Positions 1,015 to 12,612 of a stretch of DNA of 26,076 bases are shown piece after piece. The notes below the pieces were generated by a model. That model saw nothing but the letters and a program-made list of their open reading frames with translations, was not told the origin of the DNA and made no database searches. How positions within the stretch are numbered: position 1 is the first letter of the stretch; the number at the start of each line of letters is the position of its first letter. A program made the position numbers and the translations under genes. Source of the DNA: Acidimicrobiia bacterium (GTDB lineage: Bacteria; Actinomycetota; Acidimicrobiia; Spongiisociales; ZC4RG35); NCBI GenBank assembly GCA_035281305.1, contig DATEEG010000351.1:1-26076 (forward strand), read 5' to 3'.

Positions 1015-1374
1015 CTATCCGATGAGGGTTGCGGCGGTGGCAGCCACTGCGAACGCCACGAGCCAGGAGGCCAGCGACCCGACCAGGACGTACTCGGGCG
1101 AGATCTTGCTGTTGGCTCCTGTTATCTCGGGGAATCGGAGGAGGCTCTTGGCGGCGGCGACCAGGCCGGCGGCCCCCGCCTCGCCCATCAGGACCAGGAG
1201 GAATATCAAGAGCCGCTCCATACCTCCGATCCAGCGGCCGGCACCCGCTTCGGCAGGAAGTGCCACACCGCGGGCCCGCCGCAGGATCCAGCGGACTATG
1301 AAATTGGCCGGAGTGATCAGAACGGCCGCTCCGATCAGGACGATGACCAGGTCGCGGGGGCCGTCGATATTCAT
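1015..1374 (-). CDS. Membrane protein resembling the C-terminal half of SatE/DUF3307-associated proteins (119 aa)
   Basis: IGGMERLLIF..AAAKSLLRF..EYVLVGSLAS motif and hydrophobic helices. ATGA overlap with the satD stop. Confidence 0.8.
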   Translation of the reverse strand: MNIDGPRDLVIVLIGAAVLITPANFIVRWILRRARGVALPAEAGAGRWIGGMERLLIFLLVLMGEAGAAGLVAAAKSLLRFPEITGANSKISPEYVLVGSLASWLVAFAVAATAATLIG

Positions 1375-2021
1375 GCTGACGACCCGATCAAGTGGTCCCG
1401 CGATCGGAGCAATGCAGCCAGCCCGTGGCTTTGCATTCTCCGGCTCACCGAACTCTTGTTGACACCGAGGCGGGCGGCGGCTTCCTGTTGAGAGGCGCCA
1501 CCCATCAACAACTTGAGGATGGTGGCGTCAGCCTCGTCGATGCCCGCGATCGTCTGGTCGCGCAGCACCAGGATTGCGTTGTACGACGGCTCCCGGGCAT
1601 TGCCGGTCCGGCAGACCGTGCGAAGCGAATTGGGTTCCTGGTTGGAGCGTTCCGTTCGGGCCAGTTCCTGCAATGCCTCTCGCGCCCGCCACCAACACGG
1701 GCCGTCCTGGCCGAACGGCGTACGGCTGTCGTCTTGCGTCCGCAGAGTTCCCCACCCGATTCCGATCCTCACATCGACCTTGCCCAAGAGCTCAACCCTG
1801 AGACGAAAGGAGGCGTCGATGGCATCCTCGATCCGCTCGAACATCCCCTGGAATTCATCGCCCAGAGTCGGTGTGAGAGGCTGGACGGTCGGCATGGCGG
1901 CATTGACGTTCGCCAAGGCCCGGTCGAGACGCTGCTGCAAACGTGAGCGGCTGCCGGCCTGGCGCGATCCCACCACATCCCCGATGACTGCCGCCCGGTT
2001 CCGGCGGTCGGTTGCGTTCAT
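1371..2021 (-). CDS. satD: SatD family protein with C-terminal HTH (216 aa)
   Basis: IGDVVGSR, TLGDEFQG, VRIGIGWG and DGPCWWRAREA motifs; C-terminal SQQEAAARLGVNKSSVSRR helix-turn-helix. Confidence 0.85.
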   Translation of the reverse strand: MNATDRRNRAAVIGDVVGSRQAGSRSRLQQRLDRALANVNAAMPTVQPLTPTLGDEFQGMFERIEDAIDASFRLRVELLGKVDVRIGIGWGTLRTQDDSRTPFGQDGPCWWRAREALQELARTERSNQEPNSLRTVCRTGNAREPSYNAILVLRDQTIAGIDEADATILKLLMGGASQQEAAARLGVNKSSVSRRMQSHGLAALLRSRDHLIGSSA

Positions 2022-2024
2022 AAT

Positions 2025-2086
2025 GCAACTTTAGCCAAGTTGTCGTTCATCTGCAACTCTGGAGCAGGTGCGTCGCTCAGGCAACT
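2025..2086 (-). promoter_or_regulatory. satD promoter (TTGCAG-N17-TAAAGT) with overlapping inverted repeat and three GCAACT repeats
   Basis: -35 at 2056-2051 and -10 at 2033-2028, 6 nt before ATG 2021. CAACTT-N5-AAGTTG at 2026-2042. GCAACT at 2025, 2053 and 2081. Confidence 0.6.
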
Positions 2087-3057
2087 CAAGCGAGACGCGA
2101 ATCAAATCCGAAAGTGAGCCGCTCCTCTACCTGGTACGGCACCGGTATATCCCTGGTTTCACGATTCCCGCTAACCAGACGCCGCCCGATCTCAGCGAAC
2201 CATGTGTTGTTGGGCACCACCCACGGCCATAGCCGCAAACCGACCCGGGCCCCCACCATGGCCCCGACCATCGAAGCCATCTCACTTCCTCCGAGCGTGG
2301 CCGCGACCTCGATCAGACGATAAGGCTCGATCGAAGGAGATGAGGCCAGGCTGATTGCGACTATCGGTTTGTCCAAAGCAGAAGGCGGTCCGTCTTCGAC
2401 CACCTTCCTGAGAAGGTCGATGGTGGGATCATTCACCCAGGCGGCTGCTTTGCGAAGCCGCGCCGGCAAGCCCCGGGCGTCATCCATCCGGCTGAAGAGG
2501 TAGTCCTCCCGGCCGATCTCGGCCAGGGCCCGTTCCATCAGTTCGGCCGAGGCTTGCAGGAGGTCGCGCCCGACCTGGGCGAACGAAGAAGCAGCGACCG
2601 CTCCGGCGACAGCCGCGGCTCCAACCACACTGGCGGCGTCGATGTGCGTGACTCTGGCAACCGAAATGGCGGCGGTGGCGAGGCGCCCGGGGTCGCGCCG
2701 AAACCAGACGCCGACCGGGTACACCCTCGAAGCCGGTTCCGCCGAGGGTTCGACCGTGGCGGCGCCCTCGCCTCTCGAGATGGCGTCGAGCCACGCCAGG
2801 AAGCTGTCCGACGGTGCCCTATAGACGGAAGGGTTCTCGGTATCGGCCCCCAATTCCTTCCATTCCTCCCCCAGCAGGACGCGGTCGACCCCGTCGTTGC
2901 GGAGGACGTGATAGGCAACAACGGTGGCCTGCTGGGTAATGGCCGAGTACCCGATCGGGCTGTTACCTCCGGCGACGTCGCCAGCGGCGGCGGCCAACAT
3001 CACGCCGGCTCCTTCGCCGTTCAGGAGCGAAAAGAGGGGCGTGCTCGAGTCCGTCAC
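2086..3057 (-). CDS. ADP-ribosylglycohydrolase (ARH/DraG)-fold protein, catalytic motifs degenerate (323 aa)
   Basis: GVMLAAAAGDVAGG, ARVTH and ASMVGAMVGARVG match the ARH scaffold; the TDD and GDxD acidic motifs are absent. Confidence 0.7.
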   Translation of the reverse strand: MTDSSTPLFSLLNGEGAGVMLAAAAGDVAGGNSPIGYSAITQQATVVAYHVLRNDGVDRVLLGEEWKELGADTENPSVYRAPSDSFLAWLDAISRGEGAATVEPSAEPASRVYPVGVWFRRDPGRLATAAISVARVTHIDAASVVGAAAVAGAVAASSFAQVGRDLLQASAELMERALAEIGREDYLFSRMDDARGLPARLRKAAAWVNDPTIDLLRKVVEDGPPSALDKPIVAISLASSPSIEPYRLIEVAATLGGSEMASMVGAMVGARVGLRLWPWVVPNNTWFAEIGRRLVSGNRETRDIPVPYQVEERLTFGFDSRLA

Positions 3058-6356: not shown

Positions 6357-9300
6357 TCAGAGGCGCTGACCGAGGGCGACGGTCGCGGCTGTCAAGGGGT
6401 CCATCTGGCGGCCCGTCACTCGTGCAGCGACAAGTTCGGGATCGGTGACCGCGTCGGCAGTCATCACCAGGAACTCGAAGTACCACTTTGCCGCCGGCCA
6501 GGGCCGGAGGCTCAAGCGGTCACGGGTCGCCTCGGCGGCTCCGAGCGCGATCATGGCCCGCGATGCGTCGGCCTCTTGCATCGAAAGTCCGGCGAGTGCT
6601 TCAAGTGTGTAAACGAGCCCTTCTCGATACGAAATCGTGCGGTGGATTTCGACGGCCAGGCCCAGGGAACTTCGCGCCTGATCAATTGCGCCGGCGGCCA
6701 GGTGGGTGAACCCAAGTTGAGTGTGGGCCATCGCCAGCATCGAACGATTCTCGAGACGTTGGGCGATTTCCAGGCAGTTCCGGTAGTGCCTCGCCGCCTC
6801 TTCTATGTCTCCCGATGAGGCCGCCAGAAGCCCGAGACTGGTGTGCGCCCAGGTCTCCCCCCACTCGGTGCCGATAGCCCTGAACCGCTCCAGCGAGTCG
6901 ATGTACATCTCCCGCAGGTCGGCGGCCGATGCGCCGAAGGCCGGGAGAGTCGCGGCCCGCAGGTACTTGGCCCAGGCCAGGCCTTCCAGGTCGTCGGTAC
7001 CGGAAAGGACTTCTATAGAGCGTTCGAACGCTGCCAACGCGTCAGCGTGGTCGCCCCGCTCAAAGAAAACTCCCCCGGTCAGCCAAGTCAGGCGTCCGAG
7101 GGACACCGCCGGCAGGTTCGGATCGGGTGGACCGGCTTTCCGCATCCACTCCCCCACTTCGGCGACGTGTCCCCGCACCCACACGTAGATCCACAGCGCA
7201 TGGGTGAGCCGGACCATGTTCACGATCTCACCGTTTTCGGCGAAGTGCAGGACCGCCAGGCGCAGGTTCTCCCATTCCAGATCGAGCCGCCGCATCGAGG
7301 CTCCGTGCCCGGCGCCGTTCAAGCCCGGCTCGAGCTCTTCGGCCAGATTCAGAAAATGAAGGGCATGGTGATCCTGGAGCGGCTCGAACTCACCGGCCTC
7401 ACGCAGGCGCTCCAGGCCGTATTCCCGAACCGTCGCCAGCATCCGAAAGCGGGGCTCGCCTTCCGAATCGGACTCGATCCGAAGAAGGCTCTTCTCTACC
7501 AATGACTCGAGCAGCGACATCGTGGACGAGACATCCAGTTGGCCCAGGTCGACCGCCGCCTCCAGGCTCCAGTTCTGGGCCAAAACCGAGAGACGACGGA
7601 AGATCTGCCTTTCGTCGACAGTCAGGAGTTCGTAACTCCAATCGATCGTCGCCCGCAGGGTCCGCTGCCGGGCCGGAAGGTCCTGCGGACCATGACCGAG
7701 GGCATCGAACGATTTGGCTAGCTGGGTCAGCAACGTGGCCGGGGTCAACATCCGGAGCCGTGCGGCCGCCAGTTCGATAGCCAGTGGAAGACCGTCGAGG
7801 CGGCGGACGATGCCGGCGACGTCACCGGCATTCGATACGTTGATGGAGAAGTCGGGACGAACCGACCTGGCTCGCTCGACGAACAAATTGACGGCTGCCG
7901 AGTTCAGGACCGCCTCGAGGCCGTAGGTGTCTACCGAGGGAACGGGCAGCGGAGGCACGAGGTACTCGTGCTCACCGATGACTCGCAATGCGACCCGGCT
8001 GGTCACGAGCATGTTGATTCCGGGGCACCGGGTCAGCAGCCTCGTGAGAGCCGGGGCTCCGGCGACCACCTGTTCGAAGTTGTCGAGGATCAAGAGTGCC
8101 CGCTTGGCGGCGAAATGGTCGGCGACGGCCTCGAAGGAGGAGCGGTTGATCGTGGTGCCTATGGCTTCTGCGATCGCGGTCATCACCTGGTCGGGGTCGC
8201 GGACTCCGGCGAGGCTGACGAAAAGCACCCCGTCGGGGTAGTCCGCCGCGACCTGGGCAGCCACCGCTACTGCCAGACGGGTTTTACCGATTCCACCGGA
8301 GCCGCTGAGGGTGACAAGGCGCACCTCGGGGCGGGAGAGCAGCGCACCGATCTGCGCGATCTCGGGACCGCGCCCGACGAGGGAGGTGAGCTGGGCCGGG
8401 AGGTGGACCTCGGAAGCCTGGCGGGCCCGCGGGACCGGAAATTCCTCAGCCAGGCCGGGAGCCAGTAATTGGTAAAGGTGCTCGGATCGCGAGAGTCCTT
8501 TGAGGGCGAATGCCCCGAGATCGCGCAGGTGCCACTCCTGGCCTGCGATGACGTCAGCGAGAAGGCTGGCGGCCGTCGATGACACGATGATCTGGCCGCC
8601 GTGACCGGAGGCTCCGATGCGGGCGGCGCGGTGGACGTCGAGACCCACATACCCCTCGGGGGTGACGGTGGCTCGACCGGTATGCAGACCGATCCGGGCC
8701 CGGATGCCGGGGCCGGGATCATGGGGTCGATCGAGGTCGCCCCCGCTCAGTGGCTCCAGGGCCATGGTTCGTTGGATCTCAACTGCAGCCCGGGCGGCGT
8801 CGGCCGGTTCGGTGAACACCGAGAAAGTCCCATCACCTTCGGTGTCGACTACCTGGCCGCTGTGCGCGTTCACGGTGGCGCGGATCATCGATCGGTAGGC
8901 GCCCAGGACCGCGGGATACGTCTCGCCCAGCTCTTGGACCAGTCGGGTCGAGTCCTCGATATCGGAGAAGAGGAAAGTCAAGGTTCCGCCCGGCAGCTCG
9001 ACCCGTCGGGGGGACGCATCGAAGTGGTCGGTCATCAACCGGGCCAGGTCGTCGAGGAGCAGCTCGGCCAGCTCTCCAGCCGATTCGAACTGCTTGTAGA
9101 CGACTCCCCGGTCTGCTCGAATCTGATCGAGCAAGATTTCGAGGGCCGGATCCCGCTCGCCGGCCGGTTCCTTGACGTAAATCAAGCGGGGCCGATCTCC
9201 GGCGAGTCTGAACTCATCCTCGATCGCCGAGATCTCCATGTCGGGAGCCGTCAGTCCGTAGCTTTGCCAGTAGATGCCGACGAAGATGTCGCTCTGGGCG

Positions 9301-9569
9301 AGATACGACCGGTAGAGGTCGCGGGGCGGATGGGGACGTGCACCGAGCTCGAACATCACCGGGGCGAGGCGCAGAGTGCGAATGGCCGTCTTGGCTGCCT
9401 CACGCTCGGAGGCAAGCTCACCGATCGTGGAACTGATGAACACGCGCAAGCGCCGCCCGGGGACGAAGTTCTGGACCCCGGCCCCGTTCGGTTCCTCACC
9501 GGCAACGGCGATTCCGGGACCGAGCGGGTCCGGAGATCCTTGCTGGGGGCTGTCTGAGAGTGAGGCCAT
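6357..9569 (-). CDS. DUF4062 - class III adenylate/guanylate cyclase - STAND (NB-ARC-like) ATPase - TPR protein (about 1070 aa)
   Basis: VFISST..FVGIYWQSYG (DUF4062); FLFSDIEDST, EGDG, RIGLHTG, VHRAARI (cyclase); GSGGIGKT, LLILDNFE, GLPLAIELAAAR (STAND); C-terminal helical TPR-like repeats. Confidence 0.9.
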   Translation of the reverse strand: MASLSDSPQQGSPDPLGPGIAVAGEEPNGAGVQNFVPGRRLRVFISSTIGELASEREAAKTAIRTLRLAPVMFELGARPHPPRDLYRSYLAQSDIFVGIYWQSYGLTAPDMEISAIEDEFRLAGDRPRLIYVKEPAGERDPALEILLDQIRADRGVVYKQFESAGELAELLLDDLARLMTDHFDASPRRVELPGGTLTFLFSDIEDSTRLVQELGETYPAVLGAYRSMIRATVNAHSGQVVDTEGDGTFSVFTEPADAARAAVEIQRTMALEPLSGGDLDRPHDPGPGIRARIGLHTGRATVTPEGYVGLDVHRAARIGASGHGGQIIVSSTAASLLADVIAGQEWHLRDLGAFALKGLSRSEHLYQLLAPGLAEEFPVPRARQASEVHLPAQLTSLVGRGPEIAQIGALLSRPEVRLVTLSGSGGIGKTRLAVAVAAQVAADYPDGVLFVSLAGVRDPDQVMTAIAEAIGTTINRSSFEAVADHFAAKRALLILDNFEQVVAGAPALTRLLTRCPGINMLVTSRVALRVIGEHEYLVPPLPVPSVDTYGLEAVLNSAAVNLFVERARSVRPDFSINVSNAGDVAGIVRRLDGLPLAIELAAARLRMLTPATLLTQLAKSFDALGHGPQDLPARQRTLRATIDWSYELLTVDERQIFRRLSVLAQNWSLEAAVDLGQLDVSSTMSLLESLVEKSLLRIESDSEGEPRFRMLATVREYGLERLREAGEFEPLQDHHALHFLNLAEELEPGLNGAGHGASMRRLDLEWENLRLAVLHFAENGEIVNMVRLTHALWIYVWVRGHVAEVGEWMRKAGPPDPNLPAVSLGRLTWLTGGVFFERGDHADALAAFERSIEVLSGTDDLEGLAWAKYLRAATLPAFGASAADLREMYIDSLERFRAIGTEWGETWAHTSLGLLAASSGDIEEAARHYRNCLEIAQRLENRSMLAMAHTQLGFTHLAAGAIDQARSSLGLAVEIHRTISYREGLVYTLEALAGLSMQEADASRAMIALGAAEATRDRLSLRPWPAAKWYFEFLVMTADAVTDPELVAARVTGRQMDPLTAATVALGQRL

Positions 9570-9697
9570 GATCGAATCCAAGACTATCCGACGCCTCTCC
9601 CCAAGCCCCCACGAATTGGATCTCGGGGTGCCTCTGCTAACCCACCCGACCGAGTCTTCGGTGGCGTGGCGGCCGTGTTATCGCAGGGTGAGCGTCC

Positions 9698-10247: not shown

Positions 10248-11342
10248 TTACCGCGGCAGCAACAAGGCCAGTTCATCGGCCAGGGCGCGTGTGGTAGCGC
10301 GGGGTCGGAGGCGGTCCCGCAAGTATCGCCCCAGCCCGGCGTCGAGTTGGCGGCCGACGCTGGACTGGTCTCCGGTCGGTGATCCGATCAGCGCGTCGAG
10401 ATCGACGTCCGAATCGATCCCGGCAGCTTCCGACGACAATTCGAACACGAAGGCCCTCAATTCACGGGCCGCCTCGGCTCTCCGGCCCGCCGCCCACAGC
10501 GTGGCCGCCGCTTGACGCGCCTGGTCCCACCGCAGCCCGAAGCCGATAGGGCGAATGTGTGGAGCGAGCAGTTCGAGCCCCCTCCTCAGCTCGGACGCCA
10601 GGCGGGTGTCGTTATCGGTCTTGAGATTCAATTCCCCGATGAGCGCTTCCCAAATCACCTCGACGCCGATCGGGGGTCCGAGCGGGGGGTCGGCCGCCGC
10701 GACCCAGATCACCGGACTCTCGACGCCGTCGGATCGGAGGGCCGCGGCTAAATCGCCGACCAGGATTGCGATGTCATCGTCTGCAACCCGGTCGATCTGA
10801 TTGAACACAAAACGGAATCGCTCGTGATGTTGCATCAGCGGCACCAGGTGCTCGGAATGAAGGACTCGATCTCGATACTTCTCGGGATCGACCACCCAGA
10901 CCATCAGATCCATGATGGGGAGCAAGCCGGCCACCGTCTGGCGATGGCGGCCGTCGACCGAATCGACATCCGGCAGATCGATGATTGCGACCGGTTGATC
11001 GAGATCGTGGGCGACGACGTCGACGATCCCGAACCGATCGAAGAGCCCTTCGAGGCGGGATAGGTGACCGGTTGGCACCCATGCCAGGGCCTCTGAGGTC
11101 GTCGGCCTCATCGCGCCCGCGGGAGAGATCTCTCCGCCGGCCAGTGCGTTGAGCAGGCTCGACTTGCCCGACCCGGTCCCTCCCGCCAGACCGACCAGAA
11201 GGACGTTCCCGGCGTACGCCCGACGCTGCCGCTGGTCGGCCGCGATGGCGGCGATCCCGGTCATCGCCTCGTCGGGCAGGTGCTCGGCGGCAGCCGCCAC
11301 CACCCGGTCGTATTGATCGAGCCAGCGGGTTGCGTCAGACAC
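10248..11342 (-). CDS. Dynamin-like/TRAFAC P-loop GTPase 2 (364 aa)
   Basis: GGTGSGKSS, RPTT, DLPD, NQID. True start GTG 11342 overlaps the upstream stop by 8 bp; the ORF-track start of 11603 is an extension. Confidence 0.85.
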   Translation of the reverse strand: MSDATRWLDQYDRVVAAAAEHLPDEAMTGIAAIAADQRQRRAYAGNVLLVGLAGGTGSGKSSLLNALAGGEISPAGAMRPTTSEALAWVPTGHLSRLEGLFDRFGIVDVVAHDLDQPVAIIDLPDVDSVDGRHRQTVAGLLPIMDLMVWVVDPEKYRDRVLHSEHLVPLMQHHERFRFVFNQIDRVADDDIAILVGDLAAALRSDGVESPVIWVAAADPPLGPPIGVEVIWEALIGELNLKTDNDTRLASELRRGLELLAPHIRPIGFGLRWDQARQAAATLWAAGRRAEAARELRAFVFELSSEAAGIDSDVDLDALIGSPTGDQSSVGRQLDAGLGRYLRDRLRPRATTRALADELALLLPR

Positions 11343-12612
11343 TTCGCCAGTCGAGGTCGTCGATGAGAGCGGCCCCGTTCCGAAGTCTCTCCAACAGGTC
11401 CTCCGGAACGGACTCCAAACGCTCCAGGAACCTCCGGCGATCTTCCTCGATCGCCGCCTCGATCCAAACTGTTTTTGGCCAGTCACTTTTTGGCCGATCC
11501 GTTTTTGGCCGATCCGTTTTGGCCAGGGTTCGGTTCCGCCTGGGTGCGGGGTGCTCCGGGAGCGCGGCGAGAGCGGCCCGGCCCACGGTCGGAGGGGCGT
11601 CAAACCCCTCGCTCTCCATCGCCTTCACGGCGGCGGCAGCGGCGGTCTCCAACACGTTGATGGTTCTTCCCACAACCACCTCGAGGTCACGCCGTCGCTT
11701 GGGAAGCTTCTTTGTGTTGCCGCCGGCCCCGGCCAGGGGCGCCAGCGCCGCGGCGGCTGTTCCATAGGCAGCCATCACCCCTTTCGCGGCCCGAGCCGCC
11801 CTCGACGACTCCTCCTCGAGATGCCCGATGAGCACAGTCAGATCCCTGGCAAGCTGATCAGTCGCCGCCCCCGCCGCCGCGGTTCGATGGAACGTCGTTT
11901 TTCCCGCCCATTCTCTCAGCACGAGGGACAACCGTTGCACTGATTGCGGCTTGAGCAGTCCACTCACCGGATCGACCCTTTGTTCGCTGATCGTCAAGAC
12001 CGGGATCGATCCCAGGCCGTGGGACCGCAGGCGGGCGGTCAGGTCGTTGCGGGCGCCGCTGGCCCTGGTCGGAAGGCGGTTGATCACCACCACCACCGGT
12101 TTGTCGACGATGGAGGCCAGCACCTCCCAGGGCGAGGCATCGCCGTAGCGCGACGCTGTGGTGACGAATACCGCTGCGTCCGAAATTGCGAGCGCCTCCA
12201 TCGCCCGAACCCGGTGCTCGACCACATCGGAGTCGAGATCGGGCGTATCGATCAGGGCGACCGACTCGGCCAACGGATGTGCGCCCACGACCACCTGGCC
12301 GGGCCACGGACGCCCGGCGTGGGAAGCGCCGGTCCACACGACCGGTTGCCTCGTCGTAGGGCGCAGGATTCCCGATTTACCCACGGTGGAACCGGCCAGC
12401 GAGTTGACCAGGGTGGATTTGCCGGCCCCTGTCGAACCGACGAAGGCGACCACTAGCGGTGGAGGCGGATCGGTCAGACGCGGCATGAGGAATTGCCGAA
12501 TCTTCAGGATGAGTGGTGCCACCGACAATGCGCCGGCGTGACCTTCGACCTGCTCGAGAGCGTCAGCCAGTTCGCCCAGCTGTTTGCCTAGTCGTACGCG
12601 TCGCCGGGTCAC
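11335..12612 (-). CDS. Dynamin-like/TRAFAC P-loop GTPase 1 (425 aa)
   Basis: GSTGAGKST, RPTT, DTPD, VTTASRYGD, INRLP; helical C-terminal region. Confidence 0.87.
   Translation of the reverse strand: MTRRRVRLGKQLGELADALEQVEGHAGALSVAPLILKIRQFLMPRLTDPPPPLVVAFVGSTGAGKSTLVNSLAGSTVGKSGILRPTTRQPVVWTGASHAGRPWPGQVVVGAHPLAESVALIDTPDLDSDVVEHRVRAMEALAISDAAVFVTTASRYGDASPWEVLASIVDKPVVVVINRLPTRASGARNDLTARLRSHGLGSIPVLTISEQRVDPVSGLLKPQSVQRLSLVLREWAGKTTFHRTAAAGAATDQLARDLTVLIGHLEEESSRAARAAKGVMAAYGTAAAALAPLAGAGGNTKKLPKRRRDLEVVVGRTINVLETAAAAAVKAMESEGFDAPPTVGRAALAALPEHPAPRRNRTLAKTDRPKTDRPKSDWPKTVWIEAAIEEDRRRFLERLESVPEDLLERLRNGAALIDDLDWRSV
11464..11523 (-). repeat. Intragenic 4 x 15-bp tandem repeat encoding (A/P)K(T/S)(D/V)(R/W)
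   Basis: Coding-strand units GCCAAAACGGATCGG, CCAAAAACGGATCGG, CCAAAAAGTGACTGG, CCAAAAACAGTTTGG. Confidence 0.9.

Follow-up and report, generated by a model that had tools for sequence, protein, structure and literature searches.

The DNA analysed here is a 26-kb contig (DATEEG010000351.1; 26,076 nucleotides, called the window throughout) with 63-67% G+C, from an Acidimicrobiia metagenome-assembled genome of 3.07 Mb and 87.6% completeness. Its minus strand encodes a SatD-family protein and, directly downstream, a small membrane protein. We propose that the two genes form a self-repressed cassette, in which a repressor with a cyclase fold, predicted to bind metal and nucleotide, controls a conserved membrane module and is made together with it. 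SatD has the fold of a class III nucleotidyl cyclase and keeps equivalents of its metal-binding motifs; palindromes with a phasing seen across the family lie over the satD promoter region; the gene is strictly paired with that of the membrane protein; and the latter is one module of the longer partners found elsewhere. Of the readings compared here we hold this proposal to be the most likely, and taken as a whole we regard it as evenly poised between right and wrong.

The satD coding sequence (positions 1371..2021, minus strand), delineated from its open reading frame (ORF), its Pfam match and an AlphaFold model, encodes 216 residues comprising a cyclase-homology domain and a helix-turn-helix (HTH) region. 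The Pfam SatD family (PF16264) matched the product with an E value (E) of 6.8e-21 and 75.3 bits (cut-off 29), residues 11-209 aligning to profile positions 3-205 of 211, in agreement with the identity assigned in an earlier note made from the bare sequence. The partner gene (1015..1374, minus strand), defined by its ORF, by alignment to longer partners and by a model, encodes an all-helical membrane protein of 119 residues. The two reading frames are joined, as that note had stated, by an ATGA at 1371..1374 (minus strand), where direct reading of the sequence shows the satD stop codon overlapping the partner start codon, an arrangement of translational coupling. The genome holds one copy of satD. 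Across 80 other SatD loci, one genome per species, a partner homologue lay directly 3' of satD in 77, and in about 65 of these 77 its start codon lay 4 bp inside satD; loci of a relative genome (G164) were left out of the alignments. Linkage of this extent exceeds chance. The SatD family takes its name from a gene of the sat operon of Streptococcus mutans. SatD/SatE of the S. mutans type share with the present pair the protein size, the layout of cyclase-homology domain plus HTH, and a membrane gene overlapping the satD stop codon. The usual SatE-type partner is about 245 residues long and annotated as DUF3307 (PF11750), whereas the partner here has 119 residues and consists of the C-terminal module only, which Pfam does not model. 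We read the pair as a SatD/SatE-type cassette in reduced form.

The assignment of the fold rests on structure comparison. A search of 1.84 billion representative proteins returned 1455 SatD relatives at E<=0.001, and an AlphaFold2 model built on an alignment of 110 relatives (31-84% identity to SatD) had a mean predicted local distance difference test score (pLDDT) of 95.6 and a predicted template modelling score of 0.91. When the model was compared with the PDB in Foldseek, a check that the earlier note had suggested, the top matches were all class III nucleotidyl cyclases, led by Mycobacterium tuberculosis Rv1900c (1ybt, E 4.3e-5). VIA-align was used both to rescore the Foldseek matches and to search 48,161 representative chains independently. 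SatD residues 1-155 (1557..2021, minus strand) aligned with class III cyclases at Z scores of 12-13.8 over about 140 residues at 2.8-3.0 Å, the best being 5mbg (Z 13.8, 141 residues, 2.8 Å), 3et6 (13.5) and 1ybt (12.5). All 50 rows listed in the independent search belonged to the palm group of cyclases, GGDEF domains, Cas10 and Y-family polymerases. Outside class III, GTP cyclohydrolase III scored 12.8, the Pycsar uridylate and cytidylate cyclases 10.4-11.8, GGDEF domains 9.5-11.4, Cmr2 11.0 and a Y-family polymerase 9.6. SatD thus shares the β-α-β-β-α-β palm fold with class III cyclases (1ybt/1ybu; 5mbg, bPAC; 7yz9, Rv1625c), while GGDEF cyclases (PleD, 1w25; WspR, 3bre), members of the same palm superfamily, aligned over only about 120 residues and scored below class III. 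The N-terminal palm domain of SatD is a class III cyclase-homology domain.

Profile comparisons agreed with the structural matches. Two acidic motifs, IGDVVGS (residues 13-19) and LGDEFQG (residues 53-59), had been read in the earlier note as counterparts of the metal-binding aspartates of palm-domain enzymes. The SatD family profile found the cyclase domain of Rv1900c (1ybt) at E 0.0028, pairing iGDvvgSR with F-x-D-x-x-G-S-T, tvGDEFQG with tAGDGF, and vRfGiGwGev with vRIGIHaGEV. Alignment by hhalign to 25 class III cyclase domains of the same lineage paired the same three motifs at E 0.002, with a probability of only 13.8%, and ended at residue 97, before the Asn/Arg region. In both comparisons the metal-binding aspartates of cyclases, one in strand 1 and one in the β2-β3 hairpin, fall on D15 and D55 of SatD, which upholds that claim of the note. 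A single-sequence search of PDB chains gave nothing at E<=10, and it took the family profile to reach a cyclase. When the profile was restricted to the N-terminal domain, the alignment still ended at strand 4. The Pfam models Guanylate_cyc (PF00211) and GGDEF (PF00990) did not match SatD at E<=0.1, whereas 13 ordinary cyclase domains in the same genome do match Guanylate_cyc. The literature searched contains no paper that connects SatD with a cyclase or GGDEF fold, or that reports any fold, DNA site or activity for the family.

The residues expected to hold metal and phosphates are nearly fixed. Among the 110 relatives, G54 and D55 are invariant, and D15 is kept in 108, S19 in 109, R20 in 100 (with Lys in 7 more), E56 in 105, Q58 in 109 and R85 in 107; further along, G91, G107, W110 and A113 are present in all 110, and W111 and R114 in 109 each. 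D15, D55, E56 and R114 also persist in distantly related SatDs of other phyla and in one encoded on a haloarchaeal plasmid. Because the active-site equivalents are almost fixed, metal-nucleotide binding is the probable core function, and we infer binding of a nucleotide triphosphate, together with metal, by this domain. SatD and class III cyclases have in common the two metal aspartates, a D-x-x-G-[ST] phosphate loop and an R-x-G-x-G-x-G strand. SatD differs from them in being about 30 residues shorter, in its fused HTH and in a Glu after the second Asp, as in GGDEF domains. Its hairpin, (T/x)xGDEF, resembles GG[DE]EF with both acidic residues kept; G54, D55 and E56 are conserved, the first Gly is not.

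The residues for chemistry on the substrate have departed from the cyclase pattern. In class III cyclases helix 4 starts with GxxVNxAxR, which supplies the transition-state Asn and, four residues later, an Arg. The consensus of SatD helix α4 is QDGPxWWxAR, with no conserved Asn, a Trp at position 111 and R114 three residues past it instead of four, so that the Arg is apparently shifted by one in a register anchored on G107 and A113. The substrate-Lys column of cyclases, three residues before the Gly of the GD hairpin, aligns to P51, and relatives have P, V, I, L or M at this position; a substrate Lys paired with Asp, or a Glu/Cys pair, is absent. The missing Asn and Lys speak against canonical cyclase catalysis, so that any catalysis by SatD is putative. 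These features would suit a sensor and a non-canonical enzyme alike, and do not decide between the two. A Pseudomonas aeruginosa protein that is, by the title of entry 6yii, a class III cyclase-like ATP-binding pseudoenzyme aligned to the SatD model with a Z score of 10.7 and so provides a precedent for a sensing role; unlike SatD it has 473 residues, no HTH and no coupled membrane gene.

Position 111 varies in a further respect. In contrast to the Trp here and in 109 of the 110 SatDs of the actinobacterial type, three distant SatDs (loci L082, L083 and L146) have His at this position, as does Rv1900c at its transition-state Asn position. The partners of these three carry the His/Asp half of DUF3307, as was shown for L082 and L083 and is annotated for L146. 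The change at residue 111 (about 1689-1691 in the window) and the DUF3307 half may be linked, to judge by very few independent lineages.

The same residues admit another account, in which SatD would work as a nucleotidyl cyclase or oligonucleotide synthase whose diffusible product the membrane partner detects, while the HTH only sets expression; the product would either activate the partner, as in CBASS and Pycsar, or hold it off, as in Panoptes. Here the Z scores of 12-13.8, with Pycsar cyclases, GGDEF domains and Cmr2 among the matches, and the near-invariance of both metal aspartates and of the GGDEF-like GDEF motif count in favour, set against the absence of a conserved Asn from QDGPxWWxAR, the variable substrate-Lys position and a sequence that the Guanylate_cyc and GGDEF models do not reach even at E 0.1. 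The strict coupling of a palm-domain gene to a membrane gene, and the predominance of Arg, Lys and Glu among the conserved partner residues, which lie in short loops, would fit a protein that reads a nucleotide, yet the 119-residue partner has no soluble domain able to act as a canonical nucleotide sensor. A search for fused, longer SatD forms found none, which is weak evidence against a synthase, and a synthase with its own operator-binding HTH matches the layout of none of the known systems compared. We consider a synthase of this kind possible, though somewhat unlikely.

The self-repressed cassette draws on the other end of the protein and on the DNA in front of its gene. Residues 160-213 (1383..1544, minus strand) form a C-terminal HTH of the sigma-70 region 4 or LuxR-like type, identified from HTH models, a profile comparison and the model helices. 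Several HTH models match residues of about 160-205, all below their cut-offs (HTH_23, E 8.7e-5; Sigma70_r4, E 0.0017), the SatD family profile matches region 4 of SigF (8jzt) at E 0.0015, and the AlphaFold2 model has helices at 163-173, 178-185, 189-198 and 201-213. The HTH named in the earlier note is therein recovered. In the 90 bases upstream of satD, AGTTGC occurs three times at exact 28-bp intervals, each time as the left arm of a 21-bp palindrome. Candidate operator O3, AGTTGCATTATGAACGCAACC (2010..2030, minus strand), matches AGTTGC-N9-GCAACT and covers the -10 box and the satD start codon; O2, AGTTGCAGATGAACGACAACT (2038..2058, minus strand), lies 28 bp upstream of O3, matches the same pattern and keeps its palindrome in two congeneric genomes; O1, AGTTGCCTGAGCGACGCACCT (2066..2086, minus strand), lies 28 bp upstream of O2, abuts the stop codon of a gene resembling the ADP-ribosylglycohydrolase (ARH) family, and is supported likewise by the pattern match and by conservation in the genus. 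The window contains only these three AGTTGC-N9-GCAACT sites at two mismatches or fewer, with one mismatch each, where 0.53 were expected. Genome-wide, 9 sites with at most one mismatch were found against 23 for a reversed control pattern, and sites cluster at satD alone; by this simple test there is therefore no sign of a wider regulon.

The array recurs across the family. Two genomes of the same genus that have the pair keep all three sites as better palindromes, GAGTTGC-N9-GCAACTC. At least two such palindromes precede satD in 43 of 86 SatD loci, the spacing being 28 bp in 30 of the 43, 29 bp in a further 12 and 20 bp in the remaining one, compared with 0.15 loci per set in shuffled sets and 2 of 77 in a control region. 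The arm sequence, which is AGTTGC in the present genome, TGAAG in Nocardioides, TTCACC at L082 and CGCAAGTA at L137, changes between lineages while the 28- or 29-bp phasing recurs, as expected if a regulator and its own sites drift together. A consensus promoter scan upstream of satD gave no -35/-10 pair, but on reading the sequence we find a putative -10 hexamer, TAAAGT (2028..2033, minus strand), which occupies -12 to -7 relative to the first base of the satD start codon. A hexamer so close to the ATG suggests a leaderless satD transcript, and in many other SatD loci a TA-rich hexamer lies within the last palindrome directly before the start codon. Autoregulation of satD through the HTH, put forward in the earlier note, is a prediction well supported by these sequence features, foremost by the three phased palindromes over the satD promoter, which favour repression.

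The spacing of the operators, 28 or 29 bp (loci L002-L083), corresponds to about 2.7 helical turns, so that successive dimers would lie on different faces of the DNA. This hints at DNA wrapping or a helical protein array and not at simple side-by-side binding.

The membrane partner is highly conserved. It has 177 relatives, of which the 120 listed are 76-125 residues long and have no Pfam domain. Thirty columns are invariant in 28 sequences, including P22, N24, GRWIG..ER, AA..V.AAK..LR.PEI and EYVL.GSL.SW. The model (pLDDT 90) has helices at 6-33, 46-62, 66-79, 81-85 and 93-118, with hydrophobic helical stretches at 6-33, 46-79 and 93-118; it is almost wholly helical with two short loops and contains no soluble nucleotide-sensor domain. 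Pfam, NCBIfam and PADLOC gave no match for the partner, Pfam gave none at E<=10 for 28 family members, the ESM Atlas returned unnamed clusters only, and Foldseek found no match in the PDB at E<=0.001. VIA-align matched the partner to transmembrane segments of RND and sterol-sensing-domain proteins (MmpL5, NPC1, Patched and SCAP) with Z scores of 8.3 or less, below the meaningful level for helical bundles, and the resemblance is kept as a lead only.

Comparison with longer partners identified the part that is retained. Most SatD-linked partners elsewhere have 235-260 residues, and the 119-residue profile aligns to their residues of about 125-245, so the earlier note was right to see the partner as the C-terminal half of longer proteins and, in substance, to call it a minimal version. 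That half, however, is not the DUF3307 part. The Pfam DUF3307 model (PF11750) covers only the other, N-terminal half of the long partners, and the 119-residue protein is therefore without any DUF3307 domain. No PF11750 match was found anywhere in this 87.6%-complete genome, hhalign of the partner against the DUF3307 alignment gave a probability of 0.2%, and the DUF3307 motifs AHxxxDFxxQ, H, HxxxD and DQxLH are absent from the 119 residues. In two Actinomycetota genomes the SatD partner does have a genuine DUF3307 domain as its N-terminal half, in which the invariant residues are H10, D14, Q18, H36, H67, D71, D88 and H92. On a Haloplanus plasmid, satD overlaps by 4 bp with the next gene, annotated as encoding a DUF3307 protein, whose residues 147-250 match the 119-residue profile at E 7e-20. 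In most Actinomycetota partners the N-terminal half lacks the His/Asp set and is not detectably DUF3307 (hhalign of this degenerate half from the long actinobacterial partners against DUF3307 was not significant), and in Acidimicrobiia partners it is gone. A FastTree tree of SatD, in which long-branch outgroups leave the root unsure, placed the 12 Acidimicrobiia SatDs with short partners on one side of a branch (support 87), which suggests that the short partner is a lineage trait of Acidimicrobiia. Of the whole partner, the 119-residue module alone is conserved throughout these lineages, the haloarchaeal plasmid included. Its conservation from archaea to Actinomycetota suggests that the C-terminal module, and not the His/Asp DUF3307 half, is the part with which SatD works. 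The reduction of the partner to a non-DUF3307 core is a new point. DUF3307 itself was mentioned, in the literature searched, for a jumbo phage.

The partner profile and the DUF3307 profile gave weak matches to both halves of the long partners at L082 (1498-2220) and L146 (3627-4385). The two halves may stem from an ancient duplication, although hhalign between the modules was not significant; if the duplication is real, the short form could work as a dimer.

Together these data suggest how the cassette might work. SatD, presumably as dimers, would bind through its C-terminal HTH to the three 21-bp palindromes 28 bp apart. Between them these palindromes take in the -35 region, -10 box and start codon of the satD-partner transcript, which is probably leaderless, and their occupation would keep expression of the operon low, at a set level. 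In the cyclase-homology domain, the residues predicted to bind two metals and triphosphate (D15, G18-S19-R20, D55-E56 and R85) are kept, while the transition-state Asn, here Trp111, and the base-specifying Lys appear to have been replaced. A bound nucleotide triphosphate with metal may thus either tune repression or be turned over by non-canonical chemistry. The 119-residue membrane protein would be an output, or an input, kept in check by SatD, and the pair a resident accessory module for signalling or homeostasis rather than for phage defence.

The genomic setting agrees with a resident module. The pair is flanked in the window by the ARH-like gene upstream and by a Ser/Thr kinase gene downstream, with a diacylglycerol kinase gene near by; the rest of the window contains genes for pyruvate kinase, cytochrome c maturation proteins, a VanW protein and a large cyclase-STAND protein. 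None of the window neighbours recurs beside SatD outside the genus in the 80 loci, where neighbours include genes for glutamine amidotransferase, glutamine synthetase and thiolase. The pair is syntenic and vertically kept within genera. Of 301 Actinomycetota genomes sampled, 17 have a SatD above the family cut-off, in each case as a single copy. Within the genus, 2 of the 5 other genomes, not all of which are complete, contain SatD. SatD loci and plasmid records span Actinomycetota, Planctomycetota, Alphaproteobacteria and Halobacteria; eight matches were on plasmids, one of them beside antitoxin and HEPN genes, and none was found in 50,697 phage records.

On the Agrobacterium pAt plasmid (L145, 3010-4085), SatD is followed by a gap and then only by an annotated ORF of 90 residues, with a weak match to the last part of the partner profile (E 9.6e-7). 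The strand-4 motif of this SatD has diverged, and the cassette, which lies among DUF4365, antitoxin and HEPN genes, may be decaying.

The earlier note had likened the pair to CBASS, Pycsar and Panoptes, and a new anti-phage defence system of the nucleotide-signalling type would indeed share the layout of a synthase-like protein with a membrane protein, an accessory and patchy distribution, and a palm superfamily common to Cas10, mCpol and Pycsar cyclases. A survey of neighbourhoods, a check proposed in that note, found no recurrent defence neighbour in the 80 loci, and the neighbours in the window and elsewhere have housekeeping functions (kinase, diacylglycerol kinase, glutamine synthetase, thiolase, cytochrome c maturation). 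PADLOC, in a 2023 release that predates Panoptes and is a weak test for it, gave only weak HTH matches for the pair. With no sensor domain, no defence island, no PADLOC match to a system and no phage copy, the likeness therefore stays an analogy. The pair is an accessory module without a defence signature, a CBASS-, Pycsar- or Panoptes-like role is unsupported, and a new defence system is very unlikely.

In Panoptes a palm-domain synthase holds a membrane effector off, and the effector has transmembrane (TM) helices fused to a soluble S-2TM-beta, CARF or SAVED domain (PMC12657218). The SatD pair resembles OptS/OptE as a two-gene operon in which a small palm-domain protein is followed by a membrane protein (PMC12657218, PMC12657230, PMC13577387), with a possible common logic in which the first gene restrains the second. 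OptS, however, is a Cas10-type minimal polymerase (mCpol) without an HTH, whereas SatD carries one; OptE (S-2TM-beta or CARF-TM) has a soluble nucleotide-binding domain, and the 119-residue partner does not; and Panoptes sits with CBASS in defence neighbourhoods, unlike the SatD pair. A phenotype bearing on restraint comes from a pangenome transposon-sequencing study of Streptococcus pyogenes, in which satD was the only accessory gene to score as essential; 178 of the 249 genomes have it, and the strains in which it was essential were of types emm1, emm28 and emm49 (PMC11323703); the supplements of that paper have no entry for satD. Essentiality where the gene is present hints that SatD restrains something harmful, and the co-translated membrane partner would be the obvious candidate. 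The phenotype also mirrors the logic of Panoptes (PMC11323703, PMC12657218) and in that respect favours a synthase.

Restraint of a harmful partner is equally the core of an addiction or toxin-antitoxin-like cassette, in which SatD would be the repressor or antidote of a membrane protein harmful when overproduced, and the palm domain a degenerate scaffold for structure or dimerisation. Such a cassette would share the autorepression architecture, the patchy, single-copy distribution, the plasmid copies (one beside antitoxin and HEPN genes) and an essentiality confined to genomes that have satD. A mere scaffold would not keep D15, D55, E56, S19, R85 and R114 near-invariant in 110 relatives, the pair is syntenic and vertically kept within genera, and the extra His/Asp domain of the long partners looks enzymatic, which is unusual for a simple toxin. 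We therefore hold an addiction cassette to be quite unlikely.

Several points weigh against the self-repressed cassette as we propose it. The near-strict conservation of D15, D55 and E56 is seen more typically in enzymes than in sensors, and the synthase is kept under consideration for that reason. The W111/R114 register against the cyclase Asn/Arg pair comes from motif anchoring at G107 and A113. The patchy distribution and the plasmid copies near toxin-antitoxin genes are traits shared with defence and addiction modules. The S. pyogenes gene is a presumed member of PF16264, and polar effects may contribute to its phenotype. Binding of DNA and of nucleotide, the leaderless start, restraint of the partner and contact between SatD and the partner are steps that we infer.

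Other genes of the window merit a remark of their own. The ARH-like gene (2086-3057, minus strand; Pfam E 3e-13) ends 65 bp upstream of satD. Members of the ADP-ribosylglycohydrolase family usually have an acidic GGDTDT-type motif near the C-terminus; this gene reads GGSEMAS there, and its product may be inactive or altered. The gene is syntenic with satD within the genus only, and a three-gene system of ARH-like protein, SatD and partner was rejected, as no window neighbour is linked to SatD outside the genus. A protein of 1074 residues (6357-9581, minus strand) combines DUF4062, a Guanylate_cyc domain (E 1.7e-10), an AAA/STAND ATPase and TPR repeats; with 13 Guanylate_cyc matches in the genome and up to 35 in relatives, the lineage is rich in cyclases. 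Two ORFs in overlapping frames at 10248-12612 (minus strand), one with a weak match to dynamin-family GTPases (E 3.6e-7), may be a bacterial dynamin-like pair.

The Acidimicrobiia form amounts to a natural deletion experiment: the DUF3307 half has been lost, while the coupling to SatD, the operators and the C-terminal module have stayed under strong selection, and the short form tells experimenters on which 119 residues to concentrate. SatD-type pairs are widespread, the search at E<=0.001 having given 1455 representative clusters. Should the cyclase-fold domain prove active, the family would be an unrecognised one in nucleotide signalling; if it is a sensor, SatD would represent a new wiring of the cyclase fold to transcription. 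By analogy with the inverse logic of Panoptes, SatD might also be an active, non-canonical palm synthase fused to its own repressor, with either its product or SatD itself holding a harmful membrane protein off. We think this combination unlikely. Were it true, the 119-residue module would be the smallest nucleotide-controlled membrane effector known, and the pair would define a new second-messenger pathway in bacteria and archaea. Restraint of the partner by SatD would also suggest an explanation for the essentiality of satD in those S. pyogenes strains that carry it.

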